DNA of 36,912 nucleotides from a virus. The stretch lies in the IMG/VR virus record IMGVR_UViG_3300027895_000003. One strand, 5' to 3'. The translations under genes were made by a program, and so were the position numbers. The notes beneath the pieces were generated by a model. The model saw only the letters and a program-made list of their open reading frames with translations. It searched no databases and was not told the DNA's origin. Positions 2,141 through 33,347 of this stretch are shown here, one piece after another (the first letter of the stretch is position 1; the number at the start of each line of letters is the position of its first letter).

Positions 2141-2179
2141 ATACTACCGCTCGATTTTCTCAATACAAGTGTACTTGTA
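2141..2179 (-). promoter_or_regulatory. Candidate promoter (-35 TTGTAT, 16-nt spacer, -10 TAGTAT) with overlapping palindromic operator TACAAGT-GT-ACTTGTA
   Basis: Read on the minus strand: -10 at 2141..2146, -35 at 2163..2168, inverted repeat at 2164..2179. It lies in the lowest-GC part of the 2109..2442 intergenic region, upstream of ATG 2104. Confidence 0.35.
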
Positions 2180-2442
2180 CCCGATCTGACACCCATTTTC
2201 AAAGGATGCCTCAGACCTACACGTGCGTGTCGAGCGTCCAAATGGGATCGAACGAGCCCACATGAACGAACCGTTGGCCGTGACGGATGGTCGATCAGCG
2301 CGCGCCCCGGCGCGGCCCATCCGGGGGAGTGGGGAGCGGAGCGGAGGGAGCGAGGCTCGCTCCGTTGTCCATGCGTTGCTTGATGGCGTGGCTGTCGTGG
2401 TGTCACGCTGTGGTCACACGAACGAACGATTGGAGCACAGTC

Positions 2443-2826
2443 ATGCCGATGTCAGTGAAGGCCTTTGGTGCAGCGAACGACATACTGGCTGGTCGTGGCA
2501 GCGTGACCGTGGACGTAGCGCTAGCTGCTGTAGCCGGATCAGCCGGCATCGTGGCACTCGCCAAGCGGATCAAGCTGTGGGACAAGCTCGACGCGGTGGA
2601 GCAGGCCGAAGCCGAGGCGCTCGACGCCGACGCACCGCGTGGTTGGTGGAGAGCGGTTCAGGACAGCCTCAGCTCGACGATGTTCCTCGGTCGCCATGTG
2701 TCGTGGCGGCACGGTCAGCGCGATCTGGCGCACGGCAGGAGCGGCTACAGCGCTGGTCTCAACGAGCAAGGTGAGCTGGTCGTCACCACGCCTGTTCTCG
2801 ACGAGGAGAGCGGAACGCTCGTCTAA
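2443..2826 (+). CDS. Hypothetical membrane protein (127 aa); the only convincing plus-strand protein gene
   Basis: ATG 2443 has GGAG 7 nt upstream. GC3 is moderately high. There is one TM-like segment (VDVALAAVAGSAGIVALA). Its TAA stop (2824..2826) overlaps the TAG stop (2823..2825) of the convergent minus-strand gene. Confidence 0.6.
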   Translation: MPMSVKAFGAANDILAGRGSVTVDVALAAVAGSAGIVALAKRIKLWDKLDAVEQAEAEALDADAPRGWWRAVQDSLSSTMFLGRHVSWRHGQRDLAHGRSGYSAGLNEQGELVVTTPVLDEESGTLV

Positions 2827-2969
2827 CGGCGCTTGTGCTTGCGTCCCGGTCGACGCCTGGCGTTGGACAACGCAGCAGCAACGGCTTGCTTCTGGGAATG
2901 GCCTGAGTCGACCATCTCGCGGATGTTGTTGCTCACCGTCTTGCGTGAGCTGCCCGGTGAGAGCGGCAT
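2823..2969 (-). CDS. Small basic protein (48 aa): MPLSPGSSRKTVSNNIREMVDSGHSQKQAVAAALSNARRRPGRKHKRR
   Basis: The ATG shares its A with the upstream TGA (TGATG). The ..KQAVAAALSNARR.. motif resembles a small basic protein family I recall (DUF6496-like), but this is unverified. The C-terminal tail is polybasic. Confidence 0.6.
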   Translation of the reverse strand: MPLSPGSSRKTVSNNIREMVDSGHSQKQAVAAALSNARRRPGRKHKRR

Positions 2970-3295
2970 CAGATCGGTCGCTCGGTGACTGGGAACGTCG
3001 TGGCGTTGACCACTTCGACCGCTCCGGTGCCCACCCATTCGACTGTCCACGTGCCCCACTTCGCCGTGGTGTCGAGCGTGACGCTGTAGAAGCCGGTCGA
3101 GATGCGACTGATCGAGCCTGAGACGCCGTATTGCCAGACCACCGGGGCCACGCCTGAGTTCAGCACCTCGTACTTGAAGAAGATCGTGGTCGGGTCGACG
3201 AGTGTCGACGTGCCCGGTGGGCTGTAGAACAGGCCGACGCAAGTGACCGCGGTGCCGTCGTAGGTGGGGCTCGGAAGCGAGTTGGTGATCGTCAT
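2969..3295 (-). CDS. Hypothetical beta-rich virion/fibre-associated protein (108 aa)
   Basis: High-GC3 ORF coupled to the upstream GH16-like gene by an ATGA overlap. Composition is typical of Ig-like/beta-sandwich phage proteins. Confidence 0.6.
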   Translation of the reverse strand: MTITNSLPSPTYDGTAVTCVGLFYSPPGTSTLVDPTTIFFKYEVLNSGVAPVVWQYGVSGSISRISTGFYSVTLDTTAKWGTWTVEWVGTGAVEVVNATTFPVTERPI

Positions 3296-4548
3296 GAGAG
3301 CTGAATCCTTATCTGTGGCGACTCGAGGCCGATGTCACACGTTCCCGCCGTGCCCGGCTCGCGCAGGGTCAACGTCATCGAGCCACCGAACGTGAACGCG
3401 GTGGTGAGCGAGACCTCGTTGCTCGCCACTTCCATTGCGCCACTCAGGTTGAACGCGGCCATGATGTTGACCGTCGACCCGCCGATGGTCGACGCCATCG
3501 CGCCGTTGAGCGCGAATGCGCTGGTCAAACCCTGTGGCGTGGCGTTGACCGTGTTCGTCATGGCCCAGCCGATGGCGAAGCTCGACGAGACGGACGTGAC
3601 CGGTGAGTAGCTGTACGCCTGGATCTCGGCTACGTCCAAAGCTCCAGCGTAGGACCCATAACCACCGGTTCCTGGTCCCGATCCCTGCTCGCAGCCCGTC
3701 CACGCGTAGCCCGACGCACTCGAGTCCCACATCTCGACGTGGCAGATGATGATGTAGGGCTGCGCGGTGATCCCGCCCGAAATGGCTGAGCTGAGAATGT
3801 GCCAACGCTGCACGCCGTTGACGTAGCCCGAGATGTGGCTGCCCGGCACCCACTCGAAGCCGAACACGTTGAAGGTGGCTGTGAAGTCGGTCGGGCTCAG
3901 GTTCGGGAACGTCTGGTTTGTGTAGGTGCCGGCATTGTCCTGGTATGCAGTACCGAGCGGGTAGTTCACGCACGTGGTCGTCGTGGCTCCGACCTGCTTG
4001 GACAAGGTTGGTTGCACGAAGTCCATCTCGTTGTTCGCGCCACCTGACGCCGGCAGGAACCACAGCGTCGAGTTGATCCCGTTCTGAATATTGGTCGAAA
4101 GTTTCAAGTTGCCTTGCACGTACCAACCGGCTTCTGGAAGCACAAAACTGGCCGTGGAGACGCTGTTCATGACGCTCGGCATCCGCGCGCTGGTGATCGA
4201 GCCCGAGGCGTACTGGTAATAGCCCGCCGTCGTGCCGTTGCCCCACAGGCCGTTCGGTTCGCACACGATGGTCAATCCGTCGTTGACCTGGAGATATTCT
4301 GGATGCCAGAGGTTGCACGTGACGCCGTTGAACGTGCCGGCGCTGCCCTTGAGGTTGGGGCCCGTGTACGGGCTGGGCAACGTGCCGCCGAAGGTGCCAC
4401 CGCTGTTGTTGTAGACCGATCCGCCGGCGCCCATCATCGGGCACCATTTCGTGGTGTCCAGTGATGTGGTCAAGAACTGGTCGTCGTAGATCAGCTGGCC
4501 GGAGTTGTAGCCGGCCGGCGGGGGCATCTGCGCTTGGCCGAACCCCAC
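3292..4548 (-). CDS. Tail fibre/receptor-binding protein with a GH16-like (ConA-like glucanase fold) domain and a C-terminal triple repeat (418 aa)
   Basis: Motifs DDQFLTTSLDTTKW, LWFLPA and EMDFVQ (4012..4029) match the GH16 pattern DxF..LD..W / WPAxW / ExDxxE, except that the last E is Q. The C-terminus carries three xxAFxLxGAM-type repeats. Confidence 0.6.
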   Translation of the reverse strand: MGFGQAQMPPPAGYNSGQLIYDDQFLTTSLDTTKWCPMMGAGGSVYNNSGGTFGGTLPSPYTGPNLKGSAGTFNGVTCNLWHPEYLQVNDGLTIVCEPNGLWGNGTTAGYYQYASGSITSARMPSVMNSVSTASFVLPEAGWYVQGNLKLSTNIQNGINSTLWFLPASGGANNEMDFVQPTLSKQVGATTTTCVNYPLGTAYQDNAGTYTNQTFPNLSPTDFTATFNVFGFEWVPGSHISGYVNGVQRWHILSSAISGGITAQPYIIICHVEMWDSSASGYAWTGCEQGSGPGTGGYGSYAGALDVAEIQAYSYSPVTSVSSSFAIGWAMTNTVNATPQGLTSAFALNGAMASTIGGSTVNIMAAFNLSGAMEVASNEVSLTTAFTFGGSMTLTLREPGTAGTCDIGLESPQIRIQLS

Positions 4549-4550
4549 GG

Positions 4551-4643
4551 CTAGTCCTCGTCTGGCGCGTCTGCGAACAGCTCGAAGTCGGTGCTCAGCT
4601 GGATAACGACCGGTTCGGGCTGCTCTTCTTCTTCCTCGCTCAC
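4551..4643 (-). CDS. Acidic micro-ORF (30 aa): VSEEEEEQPEPVVIQLSTDFELFADAPDED
   Basis: The GTG start overlaps the upstream TGA (GTGA). Its stop lies 2 nt before the GTG start of the next gene. GC3 is about 73%. It is below the ORF-track cutoff. Confidence 0.45.
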   Translation of the reverse strand: MSEEEEEQPEPVVIQLSTDFELFADAPDED

Positions 4644-8113: not shown

Positions 8114-8964
8114 GAGGCGAACGCTCGCATAACCGCTGGTCCGAGGGTTGAGGACGCGACACCGGTGGTCCCGGACGCGTTCAAGATCGCCGTTCCGCCC
8201 GTCGTGGCCCACGCCCAATCGACCTGATACGCGGTACCGGCGACGGTGTTCATGCGGATGTAGACGTGCGCCATCGGGCTTTCCGTGTCCGTGGTCGACG
8301 AATACGCGCTCGCGCTGTAGCCGACCTGGGTCGTCGTGCCGTGCGTGAAGAGCATCCAGATGATCTCGTTCTGCGCTCCGTTGCTGAAAAACCCCGTGTA
8401 GGCCTGGAGCTCGATCAGCGTCTTGGCCGAGATCGCCGTGAAGGGCAGCGTCAGGTGCGTGGTGTCGATGGCGGCCGGGGTCGACGAGCCGATGGAGTAC
8501 GACTGCTCGGGGGACGGCTCGTAGAACGTGGAGGCGAGCTGCTGGTTGAGGGCGGTGGCGCCGTCGGTGGTCGACTGCGGCACGACGTTGACGATCCGTT
8601 GCCCGGCCAGGTTCACCGGACCTGCTGGGTTCGCCATCTGGTCGAGCGTCTGCTCGCGGATCAGGTACTCCACGGCAACGGTGCCGTTGAGCGTCGAGGC
8701 GTTGGAACCCAAGGGGATCGAGACATCCCCGGTGACCGCTGAGCGTGAGATCGTGACCGTCGGGCCTGATCCACCGCTGATGGTGACCGTGCCGTCGCTG
8801 TTCTCGATCAGCGAGATCGAGCCACCGGGGTTGAATCCTTCGATGGCTTGGATCAGCGCCCAGAGCAGTTCACCTGGGCCGTTGGACTCAGGCCGCTCGC
8901 CCCCGAAGGCTTCGATCAGGCCGATCAGAAGCTCGGCTTCGCCGAAGCTGCGGATGATGCTCAT
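8110..8964 (-). CDS. Tail fibre protein (284 aa)
   Basis: The motif ..NLAGQRIVNVVPQSTTDGATALNQQ.. resembles the common fibre motif (L..nrItnla.P....DAvnk). It is rich in T/S/G. Confidence 0.55.
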   Translation of the reverse strand: MSIIRSFGEAELLIGLIEAFGGERPESNGPGELLWALIQAIEGFNPGGSISLIENSDGTVTISGGSGPTVTISRSAVTGDVSIPLGSNASTLNGTVAVEYLIREQTLDQMANPAGPVNLAGQRIVNVVPQSTTDGATALNQQLASTFYEPSPEQSYSIGSSTPAAIDTTHLTLPFTAISAKTLIELQAYTGFFSNGAQNEIIWMLFTHGTTTQVGYSASAYSSTTDTESPMAHVYIRMNTVAGTAYQVDWAWATTGGTAILNASGTTGVASSTLGPAVMRAFAS

Positions 8965-9968
8965 GTGACCGTGGCCAGGTAGTCGGCGTAGAGCGGTCCC
9001 ACCGCGTCCAGGCTGTACTTGGCCACCGCTTCTCGACGGAGCACCTGCGCGGGGTCGTGCGCGGGGCTGCCGATGGCCTTGACGTAGTCGTCCAGGCCGC
9101 GACAGCGCCAGCCCTCGTGGCCATTGCGCACGGTCTCGGGGAAGATGCCCCAGTCAGAGACGATGACCGGTGTGCCGCTGAGCAGGGATTCGATGTGGAC
9201 ACCGCAGAACGGCTCGATGTAGCGGCTCGGGCAGAAGGTGGCGATGGCATGGCCCAGGAGATCTTTTCGTCCCTTGGGGTCGAGTTCGCCCACGTACTCG
9301 ATCTCGCCGGTGAGATCCTTGACGTACTCGGCGTCCTCGAAGACGTGGCCGCCGATCTTGAGTGGCACGCCGGCCTTCTTGCAGGCGGCGATGGCGATGT
9401 CGATGCCCTTGCAGCCTGTGATCCGGCCGAGGAAGGCGAAGTAGTCGCGGCCCTTGGAGACCGCGAAGTCCTTGGGGTCGAAGTAGTTGGGGATCACCGC
9501 GTCGAACTCGGAGCCGTAGGCGCGGTCGATGCCGTAGACGTGGTTGGCCCAGATGTGGGACTCGAAGACGCGGTATTTGGCGAACGTGCCGGTATAGCCC
9601 ACCCCGAACTCGACCACGGGCCAGTGACCGAGAGCGTCCGCGATGGGCTTCTGGGCTGTGCCACCGATCAGGCAGATGATGTCGCCGGATTCGAGATGCT
9701 GAACCAATGCGGCGATGGCCTTGGCGTTGAAGTTCTTGAACAGGAACTCCTCTGGCGTGAAGTCGGGGACGAAGAAGGGGGCGAACTGCATGTCGGTGAC
9801 CTTGACGTACTTGCCCGCCAGCTCCGCCTCGCCGTTGCCGTAGGTAACGACCTCACAACCCTGGTCCGTCATCATCTTGGCGAACTTGGCCACCTTGGCG
9901 GTGTAGGCACACCAGGAGAACTGCGCGGTGAGGTTGGTATGCGGCAGGCCGACGACGTGGAGACGCAT
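8961..9968 (-). CDS. Glycosyltransferase, GT-B fold, GT4-like (335 aa)
   Basis: ATG 9968 ([11 protein letters not shown]..) shares its A with the upstream TGA. The C-terminal motif EPFCGVHIESLLSGTPVIVSDWGIFPETVRNGHEGW matches the GT4 E-x7-E region pattern from recall. Confidence 0.65.
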   Translation of the reverse strand: MRLHVVGLPHTNLTAQFSWCAYTAKVAKFAKMMTDQGCEVVTYGNGEAELAGKYVKVTDMQFAPFFVPDFTPEEFLFKNFNAKAIAALVQHLESGDIICLIGGTAQKPIADALGHWPVVEFGVGYTGTFAKYRVFESHIWANHVYGIDRAYGSEFDAVIPNYFDPKDFAVSKGRDYFAFLGRITGCKGIDIAIAACKKAGVPLKIGGHVFEDAEYVKDLTGEIEYVGELDPKGRKDLLGHAIATFCPSRYIEPFCGVHIESLLSGTPVIVSDWGIFPETVRNGHEGWRCRGLDDYVKAIGSPAHDPAQVLRREAVAKYSLDAVGPLYADYLATVT

Positions 9969-11080
9969 CAGGCCATCTGGTAGATGATGACGTAGCCACT
10001 CCCGCCGGTGCCGCCCGCACCTGCGGAGGTCCCGGCCCCCCCACCTCCACCGCCTCCACCGGTATTGGCCGACGCAGTGCCTCCTGGTCCACCCACACCC
10101 GACGAACCGTTCGTGCCGTTGCCGCCTCCACCGGCGCCACCACCTCCACCACCGAGCGCTGCCCCGGTGCCACCGGTGCCGCCGGCCTGGCCACCGCCGG
10201 CACCGCCGGCAGCCGAGGTCGGGCCACCACCACCGCCTCCGCCCGAGCCATATCGCATCTGGCCGGGACCACCACGGGCGCCTGCTCCTGACGTGGTGGC
10301 ACCCCATCCACCAGCGGTGCCTGAGCCAGCGCCGGTGCTGCCGGCTGGCTGTTGACCGTCACCTCCAGTACCGCCAACACCCGCCGAACTCCCTCCTAAT
10401 CCTAGAATGCCACCCTTGGCTGTGACCAGAGACCCGATGGAAGTGTTGTTGCCAGTAGACCCCGCCGTGCCACCAGTGCCGATGGTCACCGTCTGGTTAC
10501 CGGTCACATTGCCCAGGTAGAAGAGCGGCAGGACCTCGCCTCCGCCTCCGCCTCCTCCACCGGTTGAGGTCGACGCGGCACCTCCACCACCACCTCCTGC
10601 AACAACGAGGGCGGCGAAGATGGCGCTGCCGGTGGTCGACGGGGTCCAGGTCGGCGTGCCGCTGGTGAAGGTGGCCGGGGCGGCGAGAACCGTGCCCGAG
10701 GCTCCTGTGGCACCGGTGACCCCCGTAGGCCCTGTGGGTCCGGTTGCGCCAGCGACCCCGGTAGCCCCTGTCACACCGACAACGCCGGTCGGACCGGTCG
10801 GGCCGGCTGAACCGGTCGCCCCGGTTGCCCCTGTGGGGCCTCCAGCGGGTCCTGTAGCCCCGGTGACCCCTGCTGCGCCCGAGGAGCCTGTAGCCCCGGT
10901 TACGCCCGCTCCGGTGGCTCCTGAGACCCCTGTAGGACCCGTCGGGCCGGCTGAACCGGTCGCACCTGTGGCGCCAGTCGGTCCACCCGAGGCTCCGGTC
11001 GCGCCTGTCGGACCGGTGGGTCCTGCAGCTCCCCCTCCGCCTCCACCCCCGGCGAACTCACCCCCGGTGCCGATGGGCAT
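9968..11080 (-). CDS. Collagen-like (G-X-Y) plus glycine-rich-domain fibre protein (370 aa)
   Basis: There are about 37 uninterrupted Gly-X-Y triplets ([13 protein letters not shown]..). Poly-Gly tracts follow, and the protein ends ..[12 protein letters not shown], typical of glycine-rich minor tail proteins. Confidence 0.75.
10690..11020 (-). repeat. Collagen-triplet coding repeat with an internal imperfect 144-nt (48-aa) duplication
   Basis: [21 protein letters not shown] occurs at residues 32 and 80. The underlying DNA is similar but not identical. Confidence 0.8.
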
Positions 11081-11376
11081 TACTGCCGTCCGGCGACGAC
11101 GTAGACGGTCGGCGTGCCCGTCGAGAAGCAGTAGGGGATGTCGTTGTTGTAGATGTTCATGATGACCGGGGAGTTGGCCACCATGAGGAAGCCGTTGGAC
11201 GCCGAGACGGTCGGACCACCCCAGTAGACCGTGCCCGAGGTGATCATGAACTGGACCGGGATCGGGTCAGACGCCGACCCGGTGATGTTGTAGAAGTCAG
11301 TCCCCGTCGATCCCTGGACCAACAACGGGGTCGCCGTCGACGCGGCCAGGGTGATCTGGTGCGTCGCGAACGCCAT
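11080..11376 (-). CDS. Hypothetical structural protein (98 aa)
   Basis: Very high GC3 from ATG 11376 ([10 protein letters not shown]..). A TAATG overlap joins it to the collagen-like gene. An alternative TTG start at 11412 is less likely. Confidence 0.55.
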
Positions 11377-11587
11377 TGGCTGATTCTGCCCCAGCGCCGT
11401 TCGTCCTGGCAACGCCTTGGACCGCTTTGGCCCAGCGCGCCCGTGCGCCTTGGTGCGTGATGCCGAGAGCGGTGCCGATCTGTTGCCACGTGAAGCCGGC
11501 GTGGCGCGCCTTGACGACCTCCACCTCGATCATACGCTCGGCCAGCTCGCGGTAGCGCTTGGCGTTGGAGAGGTCAACGAGGGTCAT
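11297..11587 (-). CDS. HTH DNA-binding protein (96 aa)
   Basis: ATG 11587. The HTH-like segment is GFTWQQIGTALGITHQGARARW. The 3' 80 nt overlap the next gene out of frame and have lower GC3. Confidence 0.55.
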   Translation of the reverse strand: MTLVDLSNAKRYRELAERMIEVEVVKARHAGFTWQQIGTALGITHQGARARWAKAVQGVARTNGAGAESANGVRDAPDHPGRVDGDPVVGPGIDGD

Positions 11588-11720
11588 CGGCCCACTCCTC
11601 CCAGAGGTCGATGGGCCTGCGGCCGAGGATGGGCTGGGGACGCGCGCAGACCCCACAGCGGCGGTCGGTGGACCGGGCAGGCAAGAACATCAGGCCGCAG
11701 CGCTCGCAGGTGCGCAACAT
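11574..11720 (-). CDS. Zinc-ribbon micro-protein (48 aa): MLRTCERCGLMFLPARSTDRRCGVCARPQP..
   Basis: Two CxxC pairs and high GC3. It is below the ORF-track cutoff. Confidence 0.5.
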   Translation of the reverse strand: MLRTCERCGLMFLPARSTDRRCGVCARPQPILGRRPIDLWEEWADDPR

Positions 11721-11735
11721 GCAACCAAGCTTACA

Positions 11736-12044
11736 CTAGAGGGCAAGGCTACTTGCGTCATCATTCTCGTTGGCGATCTCCCTGGCGCGGTCGAGCACCC
11801 ATTCGACGTGCTCGGAGCCGTCGACGTGCTCGAGGCCGTTGAGGACGGTATGCGGATCGGCACCCACCATCCGTGCGACTTCACGCAGGCTGTACCCCTC
11901 TTGGGCCAGGGCGGCCCAGTAGACGCACTTGGCGAAGTAGCGCCGCCCCATCACGCGCGTCCCGGTGTGGTGGACCGGCTCACCGAACAGCCACTCGGCC
12001 GCTTCGGCAATCTCGCTTGCACGCGGCAGTCGCTCCGCGCTCAC
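11736..12044 (-). CDS. DnaA domain IV-like HTH protein (102 aa)
   Basis: ..AKCVYWAALAQEGYSLREVARMVGADPHTVLNGLEHV.. resembles the DnaA C-terminal DNA-binding pattern (..IG..fg.rDHtTV.ha..) from recall. A GTGA overlap joins it to the upstream gene. Confidence 0.5.
   Translation of the reverse strand: MSAERLPRASEIAEAAEWLFGEPVHHTGTRVMGRRYFAKCVYWAALAQEGYSLREVARMVGADPHTVLNGLEHVDGSEHVEWVLDRAREIANENDDASSLAL
11743..11756. promoter_or_regulatory. GCAAG-N4-CTTGC palindrome (GCAAGGCTACTTGC)
   Basis: Exact instance of the recurrent motif. It lies in the last codons of the DnaA-IV-like gene, 23 nt upstream of the next ORF. Confidence 0.5.
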
Positions 12045-14839: not shown

Positions 14840-14999
14840 GGTTGTTCCGTCCCCACTCGCTGAAGCGGTGGAAGTCACGGTCGACCTCGCCGCCAGAATG
14901 GTCCCAGTGGTCTCTGGAATGCTCTGTGAGCCACGCAAGGAGTTCGAGGACCCCTACGGCGAGGGCAAGAGCGCCGAGGAAGCAGAGGTCGAAGATCAT
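14829..14999 (-). CDS. Small membrane protein (56 aa): MIFDLCFLGALALAVGVLELLAWL..
   Basis: High GC3 (about 80%) and an ATGA overlap with the upstream gene. The track only shows it inside an 87-aa ORF. Confidence 0.5.
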   Translation of the reverse strand: MIFDLCFLGALALAVGVLELLAWLTEHSRDHWDHSGGEVDRDFHRFSEWGRNNRGF

Positions 15000-15289
15000 G
15001 GCCTGAGCCACTCGTTGTAGGCCGAGGTCTCCGCGGCGATGCGCTCGAAGAGGTGACCGTCGTGGGCCTCGGTGCTGTGCGCGCCAGCGCAACGGCGACA
15101 GCTGGGAGGTCCGGGGTCGCGCATGGAGACCTCATAGCCGTAGAGGTCGGCGATGCGCTTGACCAAGGCGATCACGTCGGTCTCGTCGCCCACCAGGGTC
15201 AGGTCCCCGTACGTCAGGTCGTTGCCCATCGTCACGCCCCGCACGTCGAGCCGGGGTTCCATCTCGTCTGCGTTCACCCAGACTTCCAT
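14996..15289 (-). CDS. Hypothetical protein (97 aa), first gene after a short intergenic gap
   Basis: A strong SD (AAAGGAGG) lies 7 nt upstream of ATG 15289. Confidence 0.6.
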   Translation of the reverse strand: MEVWVNADEMEPRLDVRGVTMGNDLTYGDLTLVGDETDVIALVKRIADLYGYEVSMRDPGPPSCRRCAGAHSTEAHDGHLFERIAAETSAYNEWLRP

Positions 15290-15310: not shown

Positions 15311-15339
15311 ACTTTAGTCCACCGCAAGTACACTTGCAA
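15311..15339 (-). promoter_or_regulatory. Candidate promoter (-35 TTGCAA, 17-nt spacer, -10 TAAAGT) overlapping the palindrome GCAAGTACACTTGC (15324..15337)
   Basis: Read on the minus strand: -35 at 15334..15339 and -10 at 15311..15316. The operon-start gene with the strong SD follows. Confidence 0.4.
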
Positions 15340-15619
15340 GCCCTTTTCTTCGCACCAGCCAGCCCTGGGCGTAGCTGTACTCGGGGTGGTCGTGGATCAA
15401 GCGGTGGTCCTCGGCGCAGACTGCCAGGAGGTTGTCCAGGTCGTTCTTGCCGCCCTGGGAGCGGCGGAGGCGGTGGTGCGGGTGGACGGCCGGGGCTGAG
15501 CGGCAGACCTCGCAGACGCCGCCCGAGCGCGCCCAGAGCGCTGGTAGGACCTCTTGGAGCTCGTCGAGGTAGGCGCGACGCTTGTCCGAGATCGCTTTGA
15601 GGCTCTTGTGGCGTTTCAC
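15314..15619 (-). CDS. HNH endonuclease (101 aa)
   Basis: CEVCRS...HPHHRLRRSQGG...NLLAVCAEDHRLIH is a canonical HNH/zinc-finger motif. The GTG 15619 start overlaps the upstream stop (GTGA). Confidence 0.75.
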   Translation of the reverse strand: MKRHKSLKAISDKRRAYLDELQEVLPALWARSGGVCEVCRSAPAVHPHHRLRRSQGGKNDLDNLLAVCAEDHRLIHDHPEYSYAQGWLVRRKGLASVLAVD

Positions 15620-15750
15620 CGTGGCAGCTTCATGTAGTGGTGGCACCCCATTCGCTTGCACTTGAAGGTCACGTAGTTAGAACCACCGCTCCAACGTTCC
15701 ATGCGGGGCCCAGCGAACTTGCACCACCATGACCTATGCATCCACATCAT
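15616..15750 (-). CDS. Cys/His/Trp-rich micro-protein (44 aa): MMWMHRSWWCKFAGPRMERWSGGSNYVTFKCKRMGCHHYMKLPR
   Basis: TGATG coupling to ERF and GTGA coupling to HNH. It is below the ORF-track cutoff. Confidence 0.45.
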   Translation of the reverse strand: MMWMHRSWWCKFAGPRMERWSGGSNYVTFKCKRMGCHHYMKLPR

Positions 15751-16397
15751 CACTTGAGCAGGTCTATCGCTGCGCCGGCCTGGGACTTCGACAGCTTGTG
15801 GATCGAGCCGGGCCACGGGCCGACGTTCTGCTCCATCCACTGTTGGCCCGCGGCTCCGTCCCCTATCCCGTTGTCGTCGAGCAGCTTCTTGAGGTAGCCG
15901 ATCTGCTTGGCGCTCGCCAGGTTGGGGTCCGCGGGCACTTCGTCGGGGACGAGTTTGGGCTCCTTGACCTCGCCGGCCACGAACGGGCGCTGTGGGGGTC
16001 GGATCGCCTTCTCGGCGTCGTCGTCCTTGTCGGCGTTGATGCGCAAGATGGCGCACGTCGCGTAGCGGCGCAGATACGTGATTCCCGAGCCTTGTCCCTG
16101 TGGGTCGTTCTTCGCCATGACCAGGGGGGTATCTGACTCCATCCACTCGCCAGACACGTGCCCGAGCAACGAGGCGAGGCCCGGCTGGCCGTCCTCCATG
16201 ACGCAGGGGAACTGGGTGAGCACCAGGCCCACGTTGTGCAGGTACGGGTTGATGGCCTTGTCGATGGCCCCTTGGCTGGCGAACTCGTTGCCGAAGTGGG
16301 GGTTGACCGAGTCCTTGACCACGCTCATCCCTTCGGAGGCGTGGAGGCTGTCGAGCGCCGCGAGCAGGAACTTTATGGACTCAGACTTGCGGATCAT
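15750..16397 (-). CDS. ERF-family single-strand annealing protein (215 aa)
   Basis: ATG 16397 has GGAGG 8 nt upstream. The pattern ..LLGHVSGEWMES......PQGQGSGITYLRRYATCAILRINADKDDD.. matches the ERF core from recall. Confidence 0.6.
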   Translation of the reverse strand: MIRKSESIKFLLAALDSLHASEGMSVVKDSVNPHFGNEFASQGAIDKAINPYLHNVGLVLTQFPCVMEDGQPGLASLLGHVSGEWMESDTPLVMAKNDPQGQGSGITYLRRYATCAILRINADKDDDAEKAIRPPQRPFVAGEVKEPKLVPDEVPADPNLASAKQIGYLKKLLDDNGIGDGAAGQQWMEQNVGPWPGSIHKLSKSQAGAAIDLLK

Positions 16398-16617
16398 CGG
16401 TCGCCTCCAACACAAAGGTAGACGTGCCCAGGATCTCGGTCTGGGGGCACTTGAAGTAACGCGCCAGGGCGCGGAGGTGCTTGGGACGGATCGGCTCGTA
16501 GCCGAGCGCGTAGCGCGTCAGCTGGCTCGGGTGGATGCCGATCTTGGCTGCGATCTTGTAGGCGGCCACGTCGGCCTCGAGGAGCTTCACCTTGAGGTTG
16601 GTGATCGTGCGCTCCAC
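16381..16617 (-). CDS. XRE/Cro-CI-type HTH regulator (78 aa), apparently leaderless
   Basis: The HTH segment is VAAYKIAAKIGIHPSQLTRYALGYEP. The GTG start lies 6 nt after a near-consensus -10 element. Confidence 0.65.
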   Translation of the reverse strand: MERTITNLKVKLLEADVAAYKIAAKIGIHPSQLTRYALGYEPIRPKHLRALARYFKCPQTEILGTSTFVLEATDDPQV

Positions 16618-16623: not shown

Positions 16624-16652
16624 AATATATACGTTTATATTGCGCCGGTCTA
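16624..16652 (-). promoter_or_regulatory. Early promoter candidate: -35 TAGACC, 17-nt spacer, -10 TATATT; overlaps the inverted repeat AATATA-N6-TATATT (16624..16641)
   Basis: This is the only strongly AT-rich stretch I saw in the genome. It lies between the stop of the 1290-aa gene and the XRE start. Confidence 0.5.
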
Positions 16653-19600: not shown

Positions 19601-20522
19601 CGGTCCAGATGTCGTAGGCCTGGCGCGCCTGGTCGGGACTGAGCTTGGCGTAGGCCTCGTCCCAGGCCTGTGACATCGACGCGAGGTCGTGGCTGGCGGC
19701 TGAGGTGATCTTGACCATCGACCCGGCCAGATGCGCCTGGTCGCTCCCGGCCATGTGCGTGTTGGCGTAGTGCTTGAGGCGCGTCGAGACCGTGAGGTTG
19801 CCGTACTCGGGTAGGCCGTCGGCGTTTCGGAACAGGCCCTTGGTGCGCGTCGGAAGATTGCCGACTACCTTGCGGGCCAGCGTCAGCGCCCCCACGCCGT
19901 TCTGCGCGTCTTGTCCCAACAGCCGAGAACGGCCCAAGAGGGCTTCGGGGATGCCAGCTCGTTCCGCTATCCCGGCTCCGAGACCGGCCTTGGCCAACAA
20001 GCCGACTCCGGTGTCGGCAAGAGGAAGAACGTCGAGGAAACTGATGAGGGGATGACTGGCGACATTGGACCAGCCGCCTTGCATGTACTCGCCGATAGCA
20101 GCGACTCCGGGTATCCACTGGGCCAATGTGTTCTTCTCGGGGTTCAAGATCCAGTTCGGGTGCTCGACCGTGTTCACCACGCCGTCGACGATGGAGGGGA
20201 TCAGCTTGGTCGGCTGCAGGCCCGTGAAGATGTTCGCCGCGTCATGCTCCACGTTGGAGAAGAAGTGCCCGACCGCGCTGAGCCCTGAACCAGTCGACGG
20301 CGTGTCGGTCGGCAGCGGCGTGACGTTGTTCGGGTTGTCCGCGGCCAAAATGGCGCGCGTGCGCTCGGCCTCTGACATCGGGTAGGTGCCCGAGAGAAGC
20401 CGCTTGGAGTCGAGCTGATAGACGGGATAGATGGCGGACTGCGGGATGCCCTGGGACTTGGCCCAGTTGACCGTCTTATTCCAGGAGGTCTGGAACTCTT
20501 GAACGTTCGACTTGTAGGCCAC
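16650..20522 (-). CDS. Giant virion protein (1290 aa); candidate internal/ejection protein (alternative: atypical tape measure)
   Basis: Single uninterrupted high-GC3 ORF. It is the last gene of the late operon, after three low-complexity proteins. I recognised no enzymatic motif. Confidence 0.5.
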   Translation of the reverse strand: MAYKSNVQEFQTSWNKTVNWAKSQGIPQSAIYPVYQLDSKRLLSGTYPMSEAERTRAILAADNPNNVTPLPTDTPSTGSGLSAVGHFFSNVEHDAANIFTGLQPTKLIPSIVDGVVNTVEHPNWILNPEKNTLAQWIPGVAAIGEYMQGGWSNVASHPLISFLDVLPLADTGVGLLAKAGLGAGIAERAGIPEALLGRSRLLGQDAQNGVGALTLARKVVGNLPTRTKGLFRNADGLPEYGNLTVSTRLKHYANTHMAGSDQAHLAGSMVKITSAASHDLASMSQAWDEAYAKLSPDQARQAYDIWTGLDKALGGNDRQTLINNDALAPEMKQFFKQTFKVMDFVQEKMLASGEGAMVEMPDGTTEFRVAQGVDDKVVRSKDRLAASIDAVDKASKVSDRLADNIEANDTVAQPAFDKLSQFNQQVRGATDDPAQIAQLIGRPVPNATQLRLVNEIYGEGGLIDQVMASYESKDFDAMRTLTLKLSKKFKNKSISGDLLAPDPLNTGLQAPVRVSPLFATSRDLADNLYKYARSRKRDEDALSKAITKGGLHKKIDAYAKATKQFDKDFRDNPAANWQPLAIRLQVQNLAKSEEGKVAVAKAVAQMKNDGAITAEAEKEFREDPTRMIGIIMAHTKASATSVFAGMLSPGEINRAMEDAKSEIESLRAQGFVPHWVPNVTSKEAEGGYGEYHIRIQPLTHQSVDSATSRMLDMRNTVYDIHAGFSKAMWQQVSRDANAEFIDDIVIPGHAYKQADLEAILAKMHPDMRALASDEASLARVLESEWGLVKFDPDARFGISSKHIKGGETLWMPKEMVDGLQQIVDRNQMDPSGGLSKATQVFRTAVLGYSPRFIAHIGFGGTFLLALRHPTSFRFIPDAIRMMRDPDFRASIHTTSTQIGFDKPESMGAIAFHDAAGKTMAYHWMQQKIEELGLDPSKMTSYLQVIPQMVFKLTNLMTDMQRTLVYLDGAAKAEGRGFYVDPETGERLEMTDARAQEEGMRAANRTMGNLSAMSPFERNTLTTIMPFYGWTKHVLTYVAEYPVDHPYRAMFLANLANQNSDNVALGYYTRIQNLFFLGTPDQNGNVSAVDVRALNPLRDVANYATLGGFISALNPVISAPFAAVDPQIVFGSNTLYPTVSYSQLYGTKEASAGGNILTAAEQFVPELTTVDAAFGLSAQYRDLQRSNPAAFTKLIFESLNIPFAQVQHINLKQIAAQQELDRYSTASAAAQQAFETGNFGALGNVASVPNPLQTDYNISPANLEAVYNQALKQTGLPPSETVPEIAAPTNI

Positions 20523-27888: not shown

Positions 27889-28860
27889 CTAGCCGGTGAG
27901 GGCCGTGAACCGGCCTTGACGTGAGATGTTCCCGCAGACGAGGTTGCCGGCCCACAGCAAAAGGGCGGTCATGGCGTCCTGGTTGACCGGGGTCTGGAAG
28001 TCCTGCAGCTTGAAGTTGGCCATCTCCGAGACGATCAGCTCGAAGTAGTCCTCGTTCAAGAAGAACGGTCCACCCAGCGCGGCGGTCGAGCCGACGTGGG
28101 AGTCGGTGACCCACGGCACGCCGTTGAAGAGCAGGTTCTCGAAACCGCTCTGGGCGAGCTGGATGTCCTTGCCGCCCGGCTGGACCGGGAACTGCTGCGG
28201 CGTGAGGTTCAGGTTCCAGTAGCGGCTGTAGTTGGTGTTGTTGGACACGATGATCGTCGGGCTGCGGCCACCGCTGGTGCAGTTCATGAACAGCGTGTTG
28301 AGGGCCACGAGGCTCATGGTCGTCGTCGACGAGTCGATCTGGCTGTTCCACCACGAGTTGGCCGAGTGGCTGATCGTGGCGTAGGTGGCTTCGACCGTGC
28401 CGTTGTCGACGACCTCGATCAGGCCGTCGATCTGGAGCGGCAGGGCGATACCGTCACCGAAGAGCCCTGTGCCCAGCGTGTCGAACAGGTCCATCTCGGC
28501 CTGCTTGAACTGGGTGGCGATGTAGTCCACGATCGAGTCGGCGCCGTCAGTACGGAGCAGCGTCAACCCGTCGACCGTGACGGCACTGTAGGCCTGCTTC
28601 CAGGCCAGAGCGCCGTTCTGGATCGAGTCCGTCGGCTGGACGTTGAGGAGTTGGTAGCCCGAGTACCAGCCGCCGGCCGCCATCTTGGTGTACATGAGCG
28701 GGAACTCGATCTGGGTCCCGCCCTTGATGACGATCTTGTTCATCTTGTTCCACCGGGCGAACAAGACGTTGGAGCCGTAGATGTTGTCCACGATCCTCGG
28801 GACGATGTAACGCCTGGCAATCGCCGTGACTGTGTTCGTCCCGATCGCGGTGACTGCCAT
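27889..28860 (-). CDS. Major capsid protein (323 aa)
   Basis: It follows the scaffold gene, has the strongest codon bias in the window, and is of typical HK97-fold MCP size. A GGAG SD lies 9 nt upstream. Confidence 0.7.
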   Translation of the reverse strand: MAVTAIGTNTVTAIARRYIVPRIVDNIYGSNVLFARWNKMNKIVIKGGTQIEFPLMYTKMAAGGWYSGYQLLNVQPTDSIQNGALAWKQAYSAVTVDGLTLLRTDGADSIVDYIATQFKQAEMDLFDTLGTGLFGDGIALPLQIDGLIEVVDNGTVEATYATISHSANSWWNSQIDSSTTTMSLVALNTLFMNCTSGGRSPTIIVSNNTNYSRYWNLNLTPQQFPVQPGGKDIQLAQSGFENLLFNGVPWVTDSHVGSTAALGGPFFLNEDYFELIVSEMANFKLQDFQTPVNQDAMTALLLWAGNLVCGNISRQGRFTALTG

Positions 28861-28863: not shown

Positions 28864-29244
28864 CTACGCTCCTAGCTCGGATGGACGTGCTGCGGAAAAG
28901 TGTGTCCCACCACTCTTCGGCTTTGCAAGGGCTATGCCGACACCTCTTGCTGCGTGCCCACGACGAATGTTCTCCTGCCTCGTGACCGCTTCAAGATGGT
29001 CTGGGTTGACACACCCGCGGTTTCGACAAAGGTGGTCCAGATCGAGTCCGTCGGGGATAGGACCGACATAGATCTCGTAGGAAGCCCGGTGCGCTTGGCG
29101 GCAGCGACCGCCGTTCTCGATGCGTCCCCCAGCCCAGAACCGGCCGTATCCACCGCGCTGCAAGGAAGCTTGCCACTCCCAGCACCCAGCGTCACCGCCT
29201 CGGAGATACTGGGATTCAAACCGTCTCTCGTCCTGGGCGTTCAC
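28864..29244 (-). CDS. Free-standing HNH (HNH_3-type) homing endonuclease (126 aa from GTG 29244; 134 aa if from GTG 29268)
   Basis: CWEW....GGYGRF...AHRASYEIYVGPIP.GLDLDHLCRNRGCVNPDHLEAVT..EN is a canonical motif. GC3 is markedly lower than in the flanking scaffold and capsid genes. Confidence 0.8.
   Translation of the reverse strand: MNAQDERRFESQYLRGGDAGCWEWQASLQRGGYGRFWAGGRIENGGRCRQAHRASYEIYVGPIPDGLDLDHLCRNRGCVNPDHLEAVTRQENIRRGHAARGVGIALAKPKSGGTHFSAARPSELGA
29160..29173. promoter_or_regulatory. GCAAG-N4-CTTGC palindrome (GCAAGGAAGCTTGC) inside the HNH gene
   Basis: Exact instance of the recurrent motif. Confidence 0.4.
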
Positions 29245-30140
29245 AGAATATTTTGGTCCTTGAGCCACGCGGCCGCGGCGGCCTTGGCCGCGTGATCCGT
29301 GCTGAGATCAGGCTTCGGCTCCTGTCTCGGAGCCGATCCTGACGATCCGCTGAGCGCGTTCAGCTTGCCCTTGCGTTCCTGTGCCTTGGCCTTCTTCTCG
29401 TCAGCCGGTGAAGGAGTGGCTACCGCCCTGGCTCGGAACTCTGGGTGGTCCCAGTACGCAATATCCAGGGCTTTGAGGATGGCCTCGGGACCGCTGCGCG
29501 TGCGGGCCAGGCCGTCGATGATGTCGAGGCTGACCGCGTGCAGGCGGAGCTTGGAGATGTCGTCCTCGGTCAACTCGGGATGTGACGTGCGGAAGGTGGA
29601 GATGCCCAGTTCGGCGTCGTTGGTGGCGCGGGCGACGGCCTGCTGTTGAGCGATCTGCTGCTGGTTGCCGGCGATCGCCGCCACCTGCTTCTCGAGTTCC
29701 TGTTGGCGCGTCCACATCGCCATCTGGGCCGGGTCGTCCTGGTCCAACCATTCGGGCGGCTTGGGTGGTTCGGGTGGCGGGGCGGCTGCCTTCTCGCGTT
29801 CGAGAAGCGTCTTGACCGCCTCTTCAACAGGGACCTCGCGCCCATCGATGACGACGACACCACGGGAAGAGGGCGGGGCCTGGGCCACTGCTGGAGCAGG
29901 CTCCGCAGGCGTAGGGTCCGGCTCTGGCTCTACCTCGGGCTCTTCGTCGACGACCTCTTCGGGCTCGTCGGAGGTTGGTGCTTGGAGGCCGAACTGCTCT
30001 TGAAGGCGCGCCACCATCGCTTCGGCTTCGGCTTGCTCTTCGGGTGAGAGTTCGATTCCAAGGTCGAGTTCAGCGGCCAGGGCTTCTGGGTCAGGCTCAT
30101 CGGCCTCGGGTTCGTCGCCGGTCGGGCGGGTGTCAGCCAC
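29241..30140 (-). CDS. Scaffolding protein (299 aa)
   Basis: Highly acidic N-terminus, Pro/Glu-rich linker and helical Q/A-rich core. It sits in the usual scaffold position upstream of the capsid gene, with only the HNH gene intervening. Confidence 0.6.
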   Translation of the reverse strand: MADTRPTGDEPEADEPDPEALAAELDLGIELSPEEQAEAEAMVARLQEQFGLQAPTSDEPEEVVDEEPEVEPEPDPTPAEPAPAVAQAPPSSRGVVVIDGREVPVEEAVKTLLEREKAAAPPPEPPKPPEWLDQDDPAQMAMWTRQQELEKQVAAIAGNQQQIAQQQAVARATNDAELGISTFRTSHPELTEDDISKLRLHAVSLDIIDGLARTRSGPEAILKALDIAYWDHPEFRARAVATPSPADEKKAKAQERKGKLNALSGSSGSAPRQEPKPDLSTDHAAKAAAAAWLKDQNIL

Positions 30141-31166: not shown

Positions 31167-31256
31167 CTACCTGCGCTTTCCTGAGCGACGGTTGCCGAAT
31201 CGCCTCGCGCCCGATGACTTGCCGGGGGTCTTGAAGACGAGGGACTTGAAGGGCAT
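31167..31256 (-). CDS. Polybasic micro-protein (29 aa): MPFKSLVFKTPGKSSGARRFGNRRSGKRR
   Basis: TGATG coupling to the upstream micro-ORF. It is below the ORF-track cutoff. Confidence 0.45.
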   Translation of the reverse strand: MPFKSLVFKTPGKSSGARRFGNRRSGKRR

Positions 31257-31381: not shown

Positions 31382-31628
31382 CGGCATTCCTCTCTGGTCT
31401 CTCAGCGGCGAAGTCGTCGCGGAATGGTCTGATGCGTGACATGTGCCCCGTGTTCTCCTGGTCGCACAGGTCGAAGTCGCGCCCGTCGGGGTAGCGCGGC
31501 ATGGCGCGATGGCCGTCGGCGATGCGGATCATGACCGCGTTGGCGTCGCTCTTGGCGTCGCCGTTGGGGTAGGTGGCGTTGGCCCGGTCAGCGATGTCCC
31601 TGGTCGAGCGCGGCGAACGGGAAGGCAT
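31371..31628 (-). CDS. Hypothetical protein (85 aa)
   Basis: High-GC3 ORF overlapping the WhiB 3' end by 41 nt. Confidence 0.5.
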   Translation of the reverse strand: MPSRSPRSTRDIADRANATYPNGDAKSDANAVMIRIADGHRAMPRYPDGRDFDLCDQENTGHMSRIRPFRDDFAAERPERNADGT

Positions 31629-31899
31629 GGACCGATGATGGCAGCATCACTCGGCGTGGCGCAAGGTCTTGGAGATGTGACGGTCGGACGTACTGGTCCT
31701 TGATCCGCCGCCGCTCGCGCTGGGTCGTCCCGCCCCAGACTCCTACCTCGTCGTGCGCGATGGCGTAGTCCATGCACTGGGCCATGACGGGGCAGGTGGC
31801 GCAGATGGCTTTGGCCCGCCCAGACGCGAGCCGGTCGTTCTCCGGGAAGAAGATGCTCTGGTCCTCACCGCGGCACAGAGCGAGTTCTCGCCACTCCAT
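31588..31899 (-). CDS. whiB: WhiB-family Fe-S transcription factor (103 aa)
   Basis: Four Cys in the WhiB arrangement (C9, then CATCPVMAQC), followed by the GVWGG turn and a basic tail, RRRIK. Confidence 0.8.
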   Translation of the reverse strand: MEWRELALCRGEDQSIFFPENDRLASGRAKAICATCPVMAQCMDYAIAHDEVGVWGGTTQRERRRIKDQYVRPSHLQDLAPRRVMLPSSVHAFPFAALDQGHR

Positions 31900-31926
31900 C
31901 GACCCCGATTATGACTTCTGGGTGCC

Positions 31927-32145
31927 TCAGGCGGGTGGACCCGCCACTCTGTCCCGGCGCACGAACGGGCCGACGGCCCACGCCCAGCCGGTCAAGAGGT
32001 CGACGAAGAAGCTCAAGAGCGCGGCGCAGAGCCAGGTGTACCAGGTGACCCCGAAGAGCTGGCCCGGCGAGGAGCCCGTCGTGATCGCCGTGGCGATGAT
32101 GGCGAAGACGATGAGGACGATGGCCCCGATGATGAAGATCCTCAT
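31927..32145 (-). CDS. Small membrane protein (72 aa, 2 TM)
   Basis: Hydrophobic segments IFIIGAIVLIVFAIIATAI and WLCAALLSFFVDLL. Confidence 0.55.
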   Translation of the reverse strand: MRIFIIGAIVLIVFAIIATAITTGSSPGQLFGVTWYTWLCAALLSFFVDLLTGWAWAVGPFVRRDRVAGPPA

Positions 32146-32639: not shown

Positions 32640-32654
32640 ACCACAACCTTACAT

Positions 32655-32690
32655 GCGGAACCCCCGGCCAAGAAGTACCGGGGGTTCCGC
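32655..32690. terminator. Perfect 13-bp stem / 10-nt loop hairpin (GCGGAACCCCCGG..CCGGGGGTTCCGC)
   Basis: The arms are exact reverse complements. There is no U-tract on either strand. It sits 15 nt upstream of the 32639 start, at the end of the non-coding island. Confidence 0.45.
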
Positions 32691-32792
32691 ACACGTGGCC
32701 GCTCTTAAGGAGCCAACAGCAGCGGGGGAGGGTCTGCGTCTCGCCCGTCTACCGTTGACAAACTTAACACGGCGGCGCGACAGTTGGCACTT

Positions 32793-32868
32793 AGCAGCGT
32801 GGAGCAGGAGTAGCTCGCCAGGCTCATAACCTGGAGGTCGCGTGGTGCAAATCCCGCCGCTGCCACCA
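32793..32868 (+). tRNA. tRNA-Met(CAU)-like gene, initiator-like, with encoded CCA and an aberrant T-arm
   Basis: Manual fold: acceptor AGCAGCG/CGCTGCC (position 1:72 is an A-C mismatch), D-stem GAGC/GCTC, anticodon stem CCAGG/CCTGG, loop CTCATAA. The T-arm GCG(T)GG-TGCAAAT-CCCGC has a bulged T, and G replaces the near-universal U55. The sequence resembles bacterial initiator tRNA (TGGAGCAG..GTAGCTCG..GGCTCATAACC). Confidence 0.55.
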
Positions 32869-32980
32869 CGGATAGGGTCTGCGGTCTGCACTCCCGCGCG
32901 TGACACGAACGGCGGAGACGCCACGGACCTCACGCGCCGGTTGAGCGCCGGCATCAGCGGAGAAGATGCTGCCCTCCTTG

Positions 32981-33016
32981 CCACAGTCCACAGCTTGTAC
33001 AGCTGCCTGTGGATAA
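32981..33016. promoter_or_regulatory. Inverted cluster of CCACAG/TCCACA boxes, including a perfect TTATCCACA (DnaA-box consensus, minus strand, 33008..33016)
   Basis: The sequence is CCACAGTCCACAG-CTTGTACAGCTGC-CTGTGGATAA. There are two direct CCACAG copies, one inverted copy, and a central 5-bp-arm palindrome (32991..33005). Confidence 0.35.
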
Positions 33017-33096
33017 CTCAGGGCGAGGGTTTCGGTAAGGCTGTCTGCGCGCGTTTGGGTTGAAGAGTCAGAGGCCAGTCAAGGGCGGCTATTGGG

Positions 33097-33198
33097 TTAT
33101 TTGCGCTTCCGCCACGCCCGCTTGGAGTCGATGGCGACGATGTACCAGATGACCGCCACCGCCCACACGATGGCGAAGATCAGGCCACCGCTCACCAC
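33097..33198 (-). CDS. TM micro-protein with a polybasic tail (33 aa): VVSGGLIFAIVWAVAVIWYIVAIDSKRAWRKRK
   Basis: The GTG start overlaps the upstream TGA. GC3 is high, unlike the rest of the 72-aa track ORF. Confidence 0.45.
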   Translation of the reverse strand: MVSGGLIFAIVWAVAVIWYIVAIDSKRAWRKRK

Positions 33199-33311
33199 AT
33201 CATCTCGTCCAGCGGGGTGTCGCAGTGCAGGCAGACGCCACCGACCACGATCCGGTGCTGGCACCTCGCCCTGCGTATCGACTTGCGCCACACGGCCATC
33301 AGCCACTTCAT
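33192..33311 (-). CDS. Cys/His micro-protein (39 aa): MKWLMAVWRKSIRRARCQHRIVVGGVCLHCDTPLDEMMW
   Basis: GC3 is very high in this frame. The ATG lies 7 nt after a -10-like hexamer, so the mRNA looks leaderless. It is below the ORF-track cutoff. Confidence 0.45.
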   Translation of the reverse strand: MKWLMAVWRKSIRRARCQHRIVVGGVCLHCDTPLDEMMW

Positions 33312-33347
33312 GCAAGCTATCTTGCGCTCTGCAAGTTCCCTTGTCAA
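33312..33347 (-). promoter_or_regulatory. Candidate promoter (-35 TTGACA, 17-nt spacer, -10 CAAGAT) bracketed by two operator-like palindromes (33312..33325 and 33331..33344)
   Basis: -35 at 33342..33347 overlaps the portal stop. -10 at 33319..33324. The palindromes are GCAAGCTATCTTGC (exact motif) and GCAAGTTCCCTTGT (9/10), 19 bp apart centre to centre. Confidence 0.4.

Follow-up and report, generated by a model that had tools for sequence, protein, structure and literature searches.

A GCAAG-N4-CTTGC palindrome as the predicted genome-wide operator of a small ClpC2-type helix-turn-helix protein in an uncultured actinophage

ClpC2 represses its own gene and binds a CGTCAAC-n5-GTTGACG pseudopalindrome in electrophoretic mobility shift assays, and its R57A variant loses both dimerisation and tight binding (PMC10030653). 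In most actinobacteria two clpC2 operators overlap the -35 and -10 elements, and the transcript is predicted to be leaderless (PMC10030653). Tandem ClpC2 operators are bound about 24-fold more tightly than a single one, and repression blocks engagement of the polymerase (PMC13345244). RelI, from the RelS-RelI pair of M. tuberculosis, is presented in PMC13284704 as a member of a small Actinomycete-specific family of helix-turn-helix (HTH) proteins similar to ClpC2. This ClpC2 N-terminal domain (NTD)/RelI family was described only in 2023-2026, from an M. tuberculosis drug-sensing autorepressor and an antitoxin. Here we describe a 14-bp palindrome, GCAAG-N4-CTTGC, and a small HTH gene that would extend the family to phage gene control, in the viral contig IMGVR_UViG_3300027895_000003 of IMG/VR (36,912 nucleotides, the whole of which is referred to below as the window).

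The palindrome is enriched in the window, lies in promoter-like positions, and occurs and varies together with the gene for a small HTH protein that belongs to this family. The reading we favour, with a probability of about 0.7, is that (G/A)CAAG-N4-CTTG(C/T) is the operator of this protein, which would repress phage promoters genome-wide; binding, the dimeric state, repression and its timing we infer. If true, an uncultured actinophage gains a concrete circuit of one protein, six sites and four promoters. The protein is encoded as follows.

11297..11587, minus strand: small HTH protein of 96 aa, the predicted cognate repressor.

The phage protein and ClpC2 have homologous HTH domains, in which Arg R28 of the window protein corresponds to the dimerisation residue R57 of ClpC2, and in both systems palindromes built from inverted xCAAx/xTTGx half-sites stand ahead of the operon that encodes the regulator. 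One composite site also has the clpC2 layout of two adjacent operators over predicted -35 and -10 elements, with the start codon of an apparently leaderless transcript right after the downstream operator. The two systems differ in half-site and spacing (GTCAAC and N5 for ClpC2, GCAAG and N4 for the phage), in the protein, which in the phage is stand-alone (~65-96 aa), phage-encoded and without the Clp_N ligand-sensing domain, and in the distribution of sites, which in the phage lie at several promoters genome-wide and not solely at the regulator's own. RelI is likewise a small stand-alone HTH protein of the same family, and is the best match among solved structures (9sdc, E 1e-4); no operator is described for RelI in the available text of PMC13284704.

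It is a classical arrangement for a dimeric HTH repressor to act through palindromic operators that overlie phage promoters, and the operator architecture is as already shown for ClpC2. New, as predicted from sequence, are the phage-borne stand-alone family member, the multi-promoter regulon, the GCAAG-N4 specificity and a family-wide operator code. Phage 434 has 14-bp operators of the form ACAA-N6-TTGT, and lambdoid Cro and repressor proteins, including those of 434, resemble the present system in being small dimeric HTH proteins (a dimer being predicted for our phage protein) with 14-bp palindromes over -35/-10, tandem sites, a regulator encoded within the controlled operon and similar outer bases (ACAAG...CTTGT). 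They differ in their lambda-repressor-like (XRE) fold, whereas the phage protein is sigma-region-4/HTH_23-like, and in the clustering of their sites in OL and OR, whereas the phage sites are dispersed over the genome. The stoperators of cluster A mycobacteriophages, bound by gp71 in L5, are asymmetric 13-mers oriented with transcription and present in about 20-30 copies. These too are short repressor sites repeated across an actinophage genome, often at gene boundaries; the window differs in having six symmetric sites, mostly on promoters.

An earlier note on this DNA had listed the copies of the palindrome and called it over-represented. All of its coordinates and sequences proved correct, and an exhaustive count against shuffle and Markov controls confirmed the enrichment. 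GCAAGNNNNCTTGC (GCAAG-N4-CTTGC) occurs in four exact copies, at 11743, 15324, 29160 and 33312, against 0.06 expected from dinucleotide shuffles, with four or more copies in 0 of 100 shuffles; third-order Markov simulation gave a mean of 0.057 and a maximum of 2, so that the observed count was reached in 0 of 300 runs. Relaxing the outer bases to RCAAGNNNNCTTGY (RCAAG-N4-CTTGY) adds the sites at 2165 and 33331, giving six copies against 0.08 expected, and the core CAAG-N4-CTTG occurs seven times against 0.65 expected. The enrichment is limited to N4, with 0 or 1 copy at each of the spacings N0-N3 and N5-N8 of the same core. An unbiased scan of all 5-Nx-5 palindromes (x = 0-8) returned GCAAG-N4-CTTGC as the top outlier (Poisson p 1.8e-7; runner-up 2e-3). 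The one-mismatch class numbers ten copies against 1.4 expected; four of these variants (12007, 35825, 22015 and 33663), all within coding sequence, may be chance occurrences. That the copies as a whole arose by chance, or as a by-product of composition or codon usage, has a negligible probability: three of them overlap coding sequence, but the count lies beyond every shuffle and simulation, which rules out a chance origin; no exact copy was present in ~1 Mb of fetched related and unrelated viral contigs; and the positions cluster at gene boundaries. No long repeats were found around the sites, and the motif is therefore not part of a larger repeated cassette.

The promoters, -35/-10 elements and leaderless start described here are sequence predictions for the minus strand, along which the genes are transcribed. 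The sites had been proposed to lie at the starts of transcription units, over -35 or -10/start elements, and this stood for five of the six, which overlap the -35, the spacer or the -10/start of predicted sigma-A-type promoters. It did not stand for the exact copy at 29160, which is intragenic. The sites and their associated elements are listed below.

33331..33344, minus-strand ACAAGGGAACTTGC: predicted operator O1, overlapping the -35 hexamer and the spacer.
33312..33325, minus-strand GCAAGATAGCTTGC: predicted operator O2, covering the -10-like CAAGAT and abutting the ATG.
33342..33347, minus strand: perfect -35 TTGACA, 17 nt upstream of CAAGAT and one of only two TTGACA on the minus strand.
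33192..33311, minus strand: small Cys-rich open reading frame (ORF) of 39 aa, with its ATG directly after O2 and a third-position G+C fraction (GC3) of 0.83.
15324..15337: predicted operator overlapping the -35 and the spacer of TTGCAA (15339..15334)-17 nt-TAAAGT (15316..15311), promoter sequence cTTGCAAGTGTACTTGCggtggacTAAAGT.
11743..11756: predicted operator that occupies the 17 nt separating ATGACG from the -10 TAGTGT (11738..11733), 22 nt upstream of the ATG at 11720.
2165..2178, ACAAGTGTACTTGT: predicted operator variant whose right half is the -35 TTGTAT (2168..2163), 16 nt upstream of the -10 TAGTAT (2146..2141), minus strand.
29160..29173: exact intragenic copy, at about codons 33-37 of the HNH_3 ORF 28864..29268 (minus strand; Pfam 6.5e-15).
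4104..4117, TCAAGTTGCCTTGC: weak site within ORF 3292..4548.

The dual-site composite (33347..33309), downstream of the portal gene, has the form TTGACAAG-N4-CTTGC-N5-GCAAG-N4-CTTGC-ATG, and its promoter sequence caTTGACAAGGGAACTTGCagagcGCAAGATAGCTTGCATG can be read as TTGACA-17-CAAGAT-7-ATG. O1 and O2 are 19 bp apart from centre to centre. ORF 33192..33311 is predicted to be the first gene of a leaderless transcript; its ATG abuts O2 at a distance that suits a leaderless mRNA. An O2-equivalent site stands immediately 5' of the ATG in the related loci L109, L186 and L018/L191 as well. The 15324 promoter is followed by AGGAGG and the ATG of gene 14996..15289, and its site doubles as the last codons of the HNH gene 15314..15661. 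The 11743 site, which also overlaps the final codons of the upstream ORF, heads an operon of a Zn-ribbon gene (11574..11720) followed by the HTH gene. The 2165 promoter precedes gene 1712..2104 and then the small and large terminase subunit genes (TerS/TerL). A strict search for TTGNNN-16..19-TANNNT within 120 nt upstream of minus-strand gene starts gave only three matches, two of which carry the motif.

Two side observations concern the sites in coding sequence. The sites 15324-15337 and 11743-11756 share a reading frame and encode Ala-Ser-x-Leu-Ala in the C-terminal tails of their ORFs (...GLASVLAVD and ...DDASSLAL, each ending at the stop codon), and the ends of both upstream ORFs appear to be extended over the operators. 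The HNH_3 homing-endonuclease ORF 28864..29268 is inserted between the scaffold-like and major capsid genes, where relatives such as L001 have no gap.

With the sites 15324, 11743 and 29160 transcribed within ORFs, and a 5-bp stem with a 4-nt loop possible, the palindromes could be taken for RNA hairpins that serve processing, stability or translation. We consider this extremely improbable: the folds are weak (-5 to -7 kcal/mol, z-scores -1 to -2.3) and at one site differ from the palindrome, the loop sequences are variable, no U-tract is present, the dual site is upstream of the predicted start, and DNA binding would explain both the symmetric half-site switch described below and the association with the HTH gene. 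An RNA hairpin or intrinsic terminator was likewise rejected on folding energies, with no stable G+C-rich stem followed by a U-tract.

Several regulators encoded in the window had been put forward as the binder, and the co-occurrence of motif and regulator in related genomes singled out the HTH protein 11297..11587. Both HTH gene and motif are present in the window, in L109 and its larger versions L193 and L241, and in L186. The L109/L193/L241 contigs carry four motif sites against 0.057 expected, at only 38-45% identity between the L109 and window proteins (major capsid protein (MCP), portal and TerL). L109/L193 carries acTTGACAAGGTTCCTTGCttcgtGCAAGGATTCTTGCATG, the window's dual-site composite with identical spacing, and in L109 a homologue of the window HTH gene is second in the operon that this composite promoter drives; the window HTH gene is likewise the second one after the 11743 promoter. 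In L186, GCAAGGATACTTGC stands directly 5' of the ATG of the HTH operon. The L018/L187-191 lineage has gcTTGACGCAACGGTAGTTCCctGCAACAATAGTTGCATG in the same place, with the half-site changed from GCAAG to GCAAC in both arms, and the resulting motif, GCAAC-N4-GTTGC, has two exact copies in the genome against 0.023 expected. The motif heads an HTH-encoding operon in four lineages. A profile search of loci L001-L066 and the window detected the HTH family only in the window and in L018-L020, and both HTH gene and motif are absent from the sampled regions of L001-L017 and L055-L066, the relatives to which this statement applies. Motif and HTH gene occur, vary and are missing together among related phages.

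The binder is likely to be the small HTH protein rather than the XRE-family protein 16381..16617, for which a phage 434-like 14-bp operator geometry could be invoked. The XRE protein has a true HTH_3 domain, the 5-4-5 palindrome with ACAAG outer bases resembles 434 operators, and the L055 homologue retains the helix start HPSQL on a contig with one ACAAGTCTACTTGT site. However, the XRE gene is syntenic, right after the gene for a 1290-aa protein, in seven motif-free relatives (one contig ~88% sampled), XRE was not detected in the motif-bearing loci L109/L193/L186/L191, and the gene has no upstream site of its own. We rejected it on this phyletic pattern and regard it as very unlikely to be the binder; a PDB sequence search with the XRE protein was uninformative. 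The ribbon-helix-helix and AbrB-like proteins, also named as candidates in the earlier note, gained no support. The broader proposal of an operator for a dimeric phage HTH regulator is supported by promoter geometry, the comparative pattern and the ClpC2 precedent.

L109 was found by a DNA scan for two adjacent sites, which was dominated by an unrelated family with CAAGCATGCTTG pairs; a stricter composite scan returned only L109-type contigs and an unrelated tandem array of GCAAG-N4-CTTGC in L355 (1336-1521), a 190-kb viral contig of 47% G+C with no HTH homologue nearby. More than 60 viral contigs among loci L067-L185 (e.g. L100 and L143; 53-61% G+C) carry RCAAGCATGCTTGY pairs separated by an AT-rich 9-nt gap, typically in 3-5 copies per locus, as do the Pseudomonas aeruginosa phages YMC11/02/R656 and vB_PaeS-D14O. 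The RCAAGCATGCTTGY pairs are an unrelated operator-like system that shares the CAAG-N4-CTTG core. The single site of L001 that shares the 12-mer CAAGTCTACTTG is intergenic, in AT-rich DNA downstream of the portal gene.

Searches with the HTH protein placed it near ClpC2 and RelI. A family profile that includes the window protein matched RelI (9sdc, 4.7e-12) and ClpC2 (8ada, Rv2667(1-72), 1.5e-6) in the PDB, and the window protein alone returned the same two as its best matches, RelI at 9.9e-5 and the ClpC2 N-terminal domain at 0.33. The window ORF scored 5e-25 in hmmsearch, a partly circular value, the ORF being one of the 11 profile sequences. The family is large, with 7193 hits. The named genomic homologues are nearly all from Actinomycetota, and by these profile matches the HTH protein is a member of the Actinomycete-specific ClpC2-N-terminal/RelI family. 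NCBIfam holds no specific match for the regulator; the window protein's own Pfam matches are all below the cut-off, and its relatives have only generic HTH_23 and weak Sigma70_r4 matches. Conservation covers only residues ~1-57 of the 96, and includes the invariant Arg28, which aligns with ClpC2 R57. The window protein has no C-terminal Clp_N (ClpC1-NTD-like) ligand-binding domain, and so is related to the N-terminal domain of ClpC2 without being a ClpC2 itself. The last ~40 residues of the regulator are unconserved and modelled with low confidence, and its ORF overlaps the next gene (11080..11376) by 80 nt (11297-11376); the true C-terminus of the regulator, or the start of the neighbouring gene, may differ from the annotation.

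In an AlphaFold model built from database homologues (pLDDT above 90 over residues 10-55), a long N-terminal helix precedes the HTH. The model superposes with 0.5 Å over 44 residues on sigma-70 region 4, which recognises the -35 hexamer, but with weak Foldseek E-values. The half-sites of the operators (GTTGAC and CTTGC) resemble -35 hexamers in inverted orientation, and several promoters have a half-site as their -35 element. The same protein at the same sites could on these grounds be an activator, or a substitute for sigma region 4 at about -30, that recruits or redirects host RNA polymerase, possibly together with WhiB. In its favour, the centres of three sites fall between -35 and -17, neither 11743 nor 15324 has a perfect -35 hexamer, and the WhiB encoded by the phage would bind sigma-A region 4. 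However, O2 at 33312, lying across the -10 and the start site, is placed as a repressor site would be; ClpC2, the family member that has been characterised, represses; and the sites of cellular homologues lie directly over good TTGACA and TAnnnT elements. We judge activation to be unlikely. T4 appropriates sigma through MotA, and a free-standing sigma-region-4-like domain that, with WhiB, re-programmes host RNA polymerase as an actinobacterial analogue of T4 AsiA/MotA is an improbable, if conceivable, form of the same idea. Its corollary would be that the N-terminal HTH, and not Clp_N, recognises the operator in cellular ClpC2 and RelI relatives.

The operator prediction was extended to 160 homologous loci, 80 metagenomic and 80 from named genomes. 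The metagenomic loci contain 19 perfect xCAxx-N4-xxTGx palindromes within 250 bp upstream of the HTH gene, against 1.25 expected. In the same 250-bp interval of the named genomes there are 30 N4 palindromes against 1.4 expected and 10 N5 palindromes against 1.8; no N3 or N6 palindromes were found there in these 80 genomes. In the typical layout site 1 ends in TTGACA and site 2 holds a TAnnnT hexamer, with the ATG 6-8 nt later (leaderless). Half-sites of the subfamilies include TCAAC, GCAAC, TCAGC, TCAAT, TCAAG and GCAAG. These data suggest that the family as a whole follows one operator code, xCAxx-N4 or N5-xxTGx, with sites usually in pairs over the -35/-10 of leaderless promoters, and the natural specificity variants (GCAAG, GCAAC, TCAAC, TCAGC and TCAAT) could be used for working out DNA recognition.

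Among loci L195-L354 (e.g. L205, L272, L290 and L333) are stand-alone ClpC2-NTD-like HTH genes of Actinomycetota with paired N4 operators, and in L272 the stand-alone HTH gene is followed by genes for a separate Clp_N-like protein (recognised by eye) and an ABC transporter. The pairing of operators with stand-alone HTH genes, and the separation of HTH and Clp_N in L272, argue that the N-terminal HTH, and not the Clp_N domain, would read the ClpC2 operator sequence.

A homologue in a Pseudonocardia metagenome-assembled genome has a GCAAG-N4-CTTGC pair, GCAAGTTAACTTGC-N14-GCAAGTAAACTTGC-atc-ATG. Such identical sites at a cellular homologue would fit a host-encoded HTH paralogue, or another host factor, as the binder, with the phage promoters wired into a host regulon and the phage HTH serving, for example, as an antitoxin mimic; RelI-type members are antitoxins, and a prophage homologue is annotated as one. 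We consider this quite unlikely, since the motif type co-varies with the phage-encoded HTH across lineages (GCAAG vs GCAAC) and the motif heads the HTH operon in four of them. The neighbours of the HTH gene in the window encode a 48-aa Zn-ribbon (no Pfam match, E up to 0.1) and a structural-looking protein; no RelS-like (RelE/BrnT-like) toxin gene was seen beside it, though no search aimed at toxins was made.

Under the favoured reading, the phage HTH protein would bind each palindrome as a dimer, with one subunit per CTTGC half-site. With its sites placed on the -35, spacer or -10/start, the bound dimer would be expected to exclude RNA polymerase and so repress transcription. Dual operators, one on the -35 and one on the -10/start, may give tighter, cooperative control. 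The 11743 promoter heads the operon that holds the HTH gene, which is why we propose that the protein limits its own synthesis. Of the roughly five transcription units on the circular genome, four would have sites at their heads: the packaging genes; the post-portal genes through to head and tail; an early-region block; and the regulator with the tail-fibre block. With that distribution, the HTH protein could act as a genome-wide, Cro-like shut-down or feedback switch.

Several results weigh against repression by this protein at these sites. Taken alone, the window protein resembles the ClpC2 N-terminal domain only weakly (E 0.33). The Mtb ClpC2 N-terminal domain alone gave no repression in vitro (PMC13345244), and the DNA contact of ClpC2 has been assigned to its C-terminal (Clp_N) domain (PMC10030653). 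Only 15 of 80 and 20 of 80 homologous loci in the two sets have a perfect upstream N4 palindrome. One CAAGTCTACTTG site each is present in L001 (6701-6714) and L063 (20753-20766), in the sampled parts of which no HTH gene was found. Most related contigs are incomplete, and an absent HTH gene or motif is only partly informative. Within the window, no promoter elements were found beside 29160, the 4104 site lies in coding sequence and could be chance, and a generic sigma-70 promoter scanner did not call the predicted promoters; at the high G+C content of this genome, scanning for generic promoters and terminators gave no useful information.

The first and last 127 bases of the window are an identical direct repeat (1-127 and 36786-36912), and the terminase large-subunit gene is split across the window ends, which are bridged by the terminase gene of a relative. 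From the identical ends and the spanning terminase, the window is read as a complete circular contig of 36,785 bp with 65% G+C, and its gene content is that of a podovirus-like actinophage. Nearly all genes are on the minus strand. The other principal genes are as follows.

Split across the window ends, minus strand: terminase large subunit.
33344..35188, minus strand: portal.
27889..28860, minus strand: major capsid protein.
16650-20522, minus strand: 1290-aa protein at the end of the structural module, with no PHROG or Pfam match.
16381..16617, minus strand: XRE-type protein with an HTH_3 domain.
15750..16397, minus strand: Erf.
31588..31899: WhiB (Pfam 6e-22).

The 1290-aa protein is conserved at 31-51% identity in most of the sampled related contigs (23 loci). 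HNH endonucleases and a glycosyltransferase are also encoded. WhiB is a protein of actinobacteria and their phages, and its gene suggests that the host is an actinobacterium. Distant relatives of the capsid protein are those of podoviruses such as Mx8 and the Brucella Tb group. Relatives in IMG/VR have 37-90% capsid identity and a conserved gene order; a near-identity DNA search of the phage collection found no close cultured relative, and an MCP search of genome contigs found no prophage relatives. No integrase was present among the proteins scanned, and no immunity region was seen.

The ~8-kb block between the regulator and the packaging genes is absent from relatives. It contains a collagen-like Gly-rich repeat protein (9968-11080, minus strand), then a glycosyltransferase (8961-9968, minus strand; phrog_3408, 1.5e-59) and, downstream, the 418-aa ORF 3292..4548, which is of GH16/lectin type by eye, with no database match. 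Fetching relatives through glycosyltransferase and Erf anchors yielded unrelated phages only, a consequence of the mosaic nature of the early and accessory regions. A tRNA-Met (32793-32868) lies on the plus strand, antisense to all neighbouring genes, with a perfect TTGACA at 32755, 38 nt upstream; in the relative L109, a tRNA-Met is on the coding strand, immediately upstream of the dual-operator promoter.

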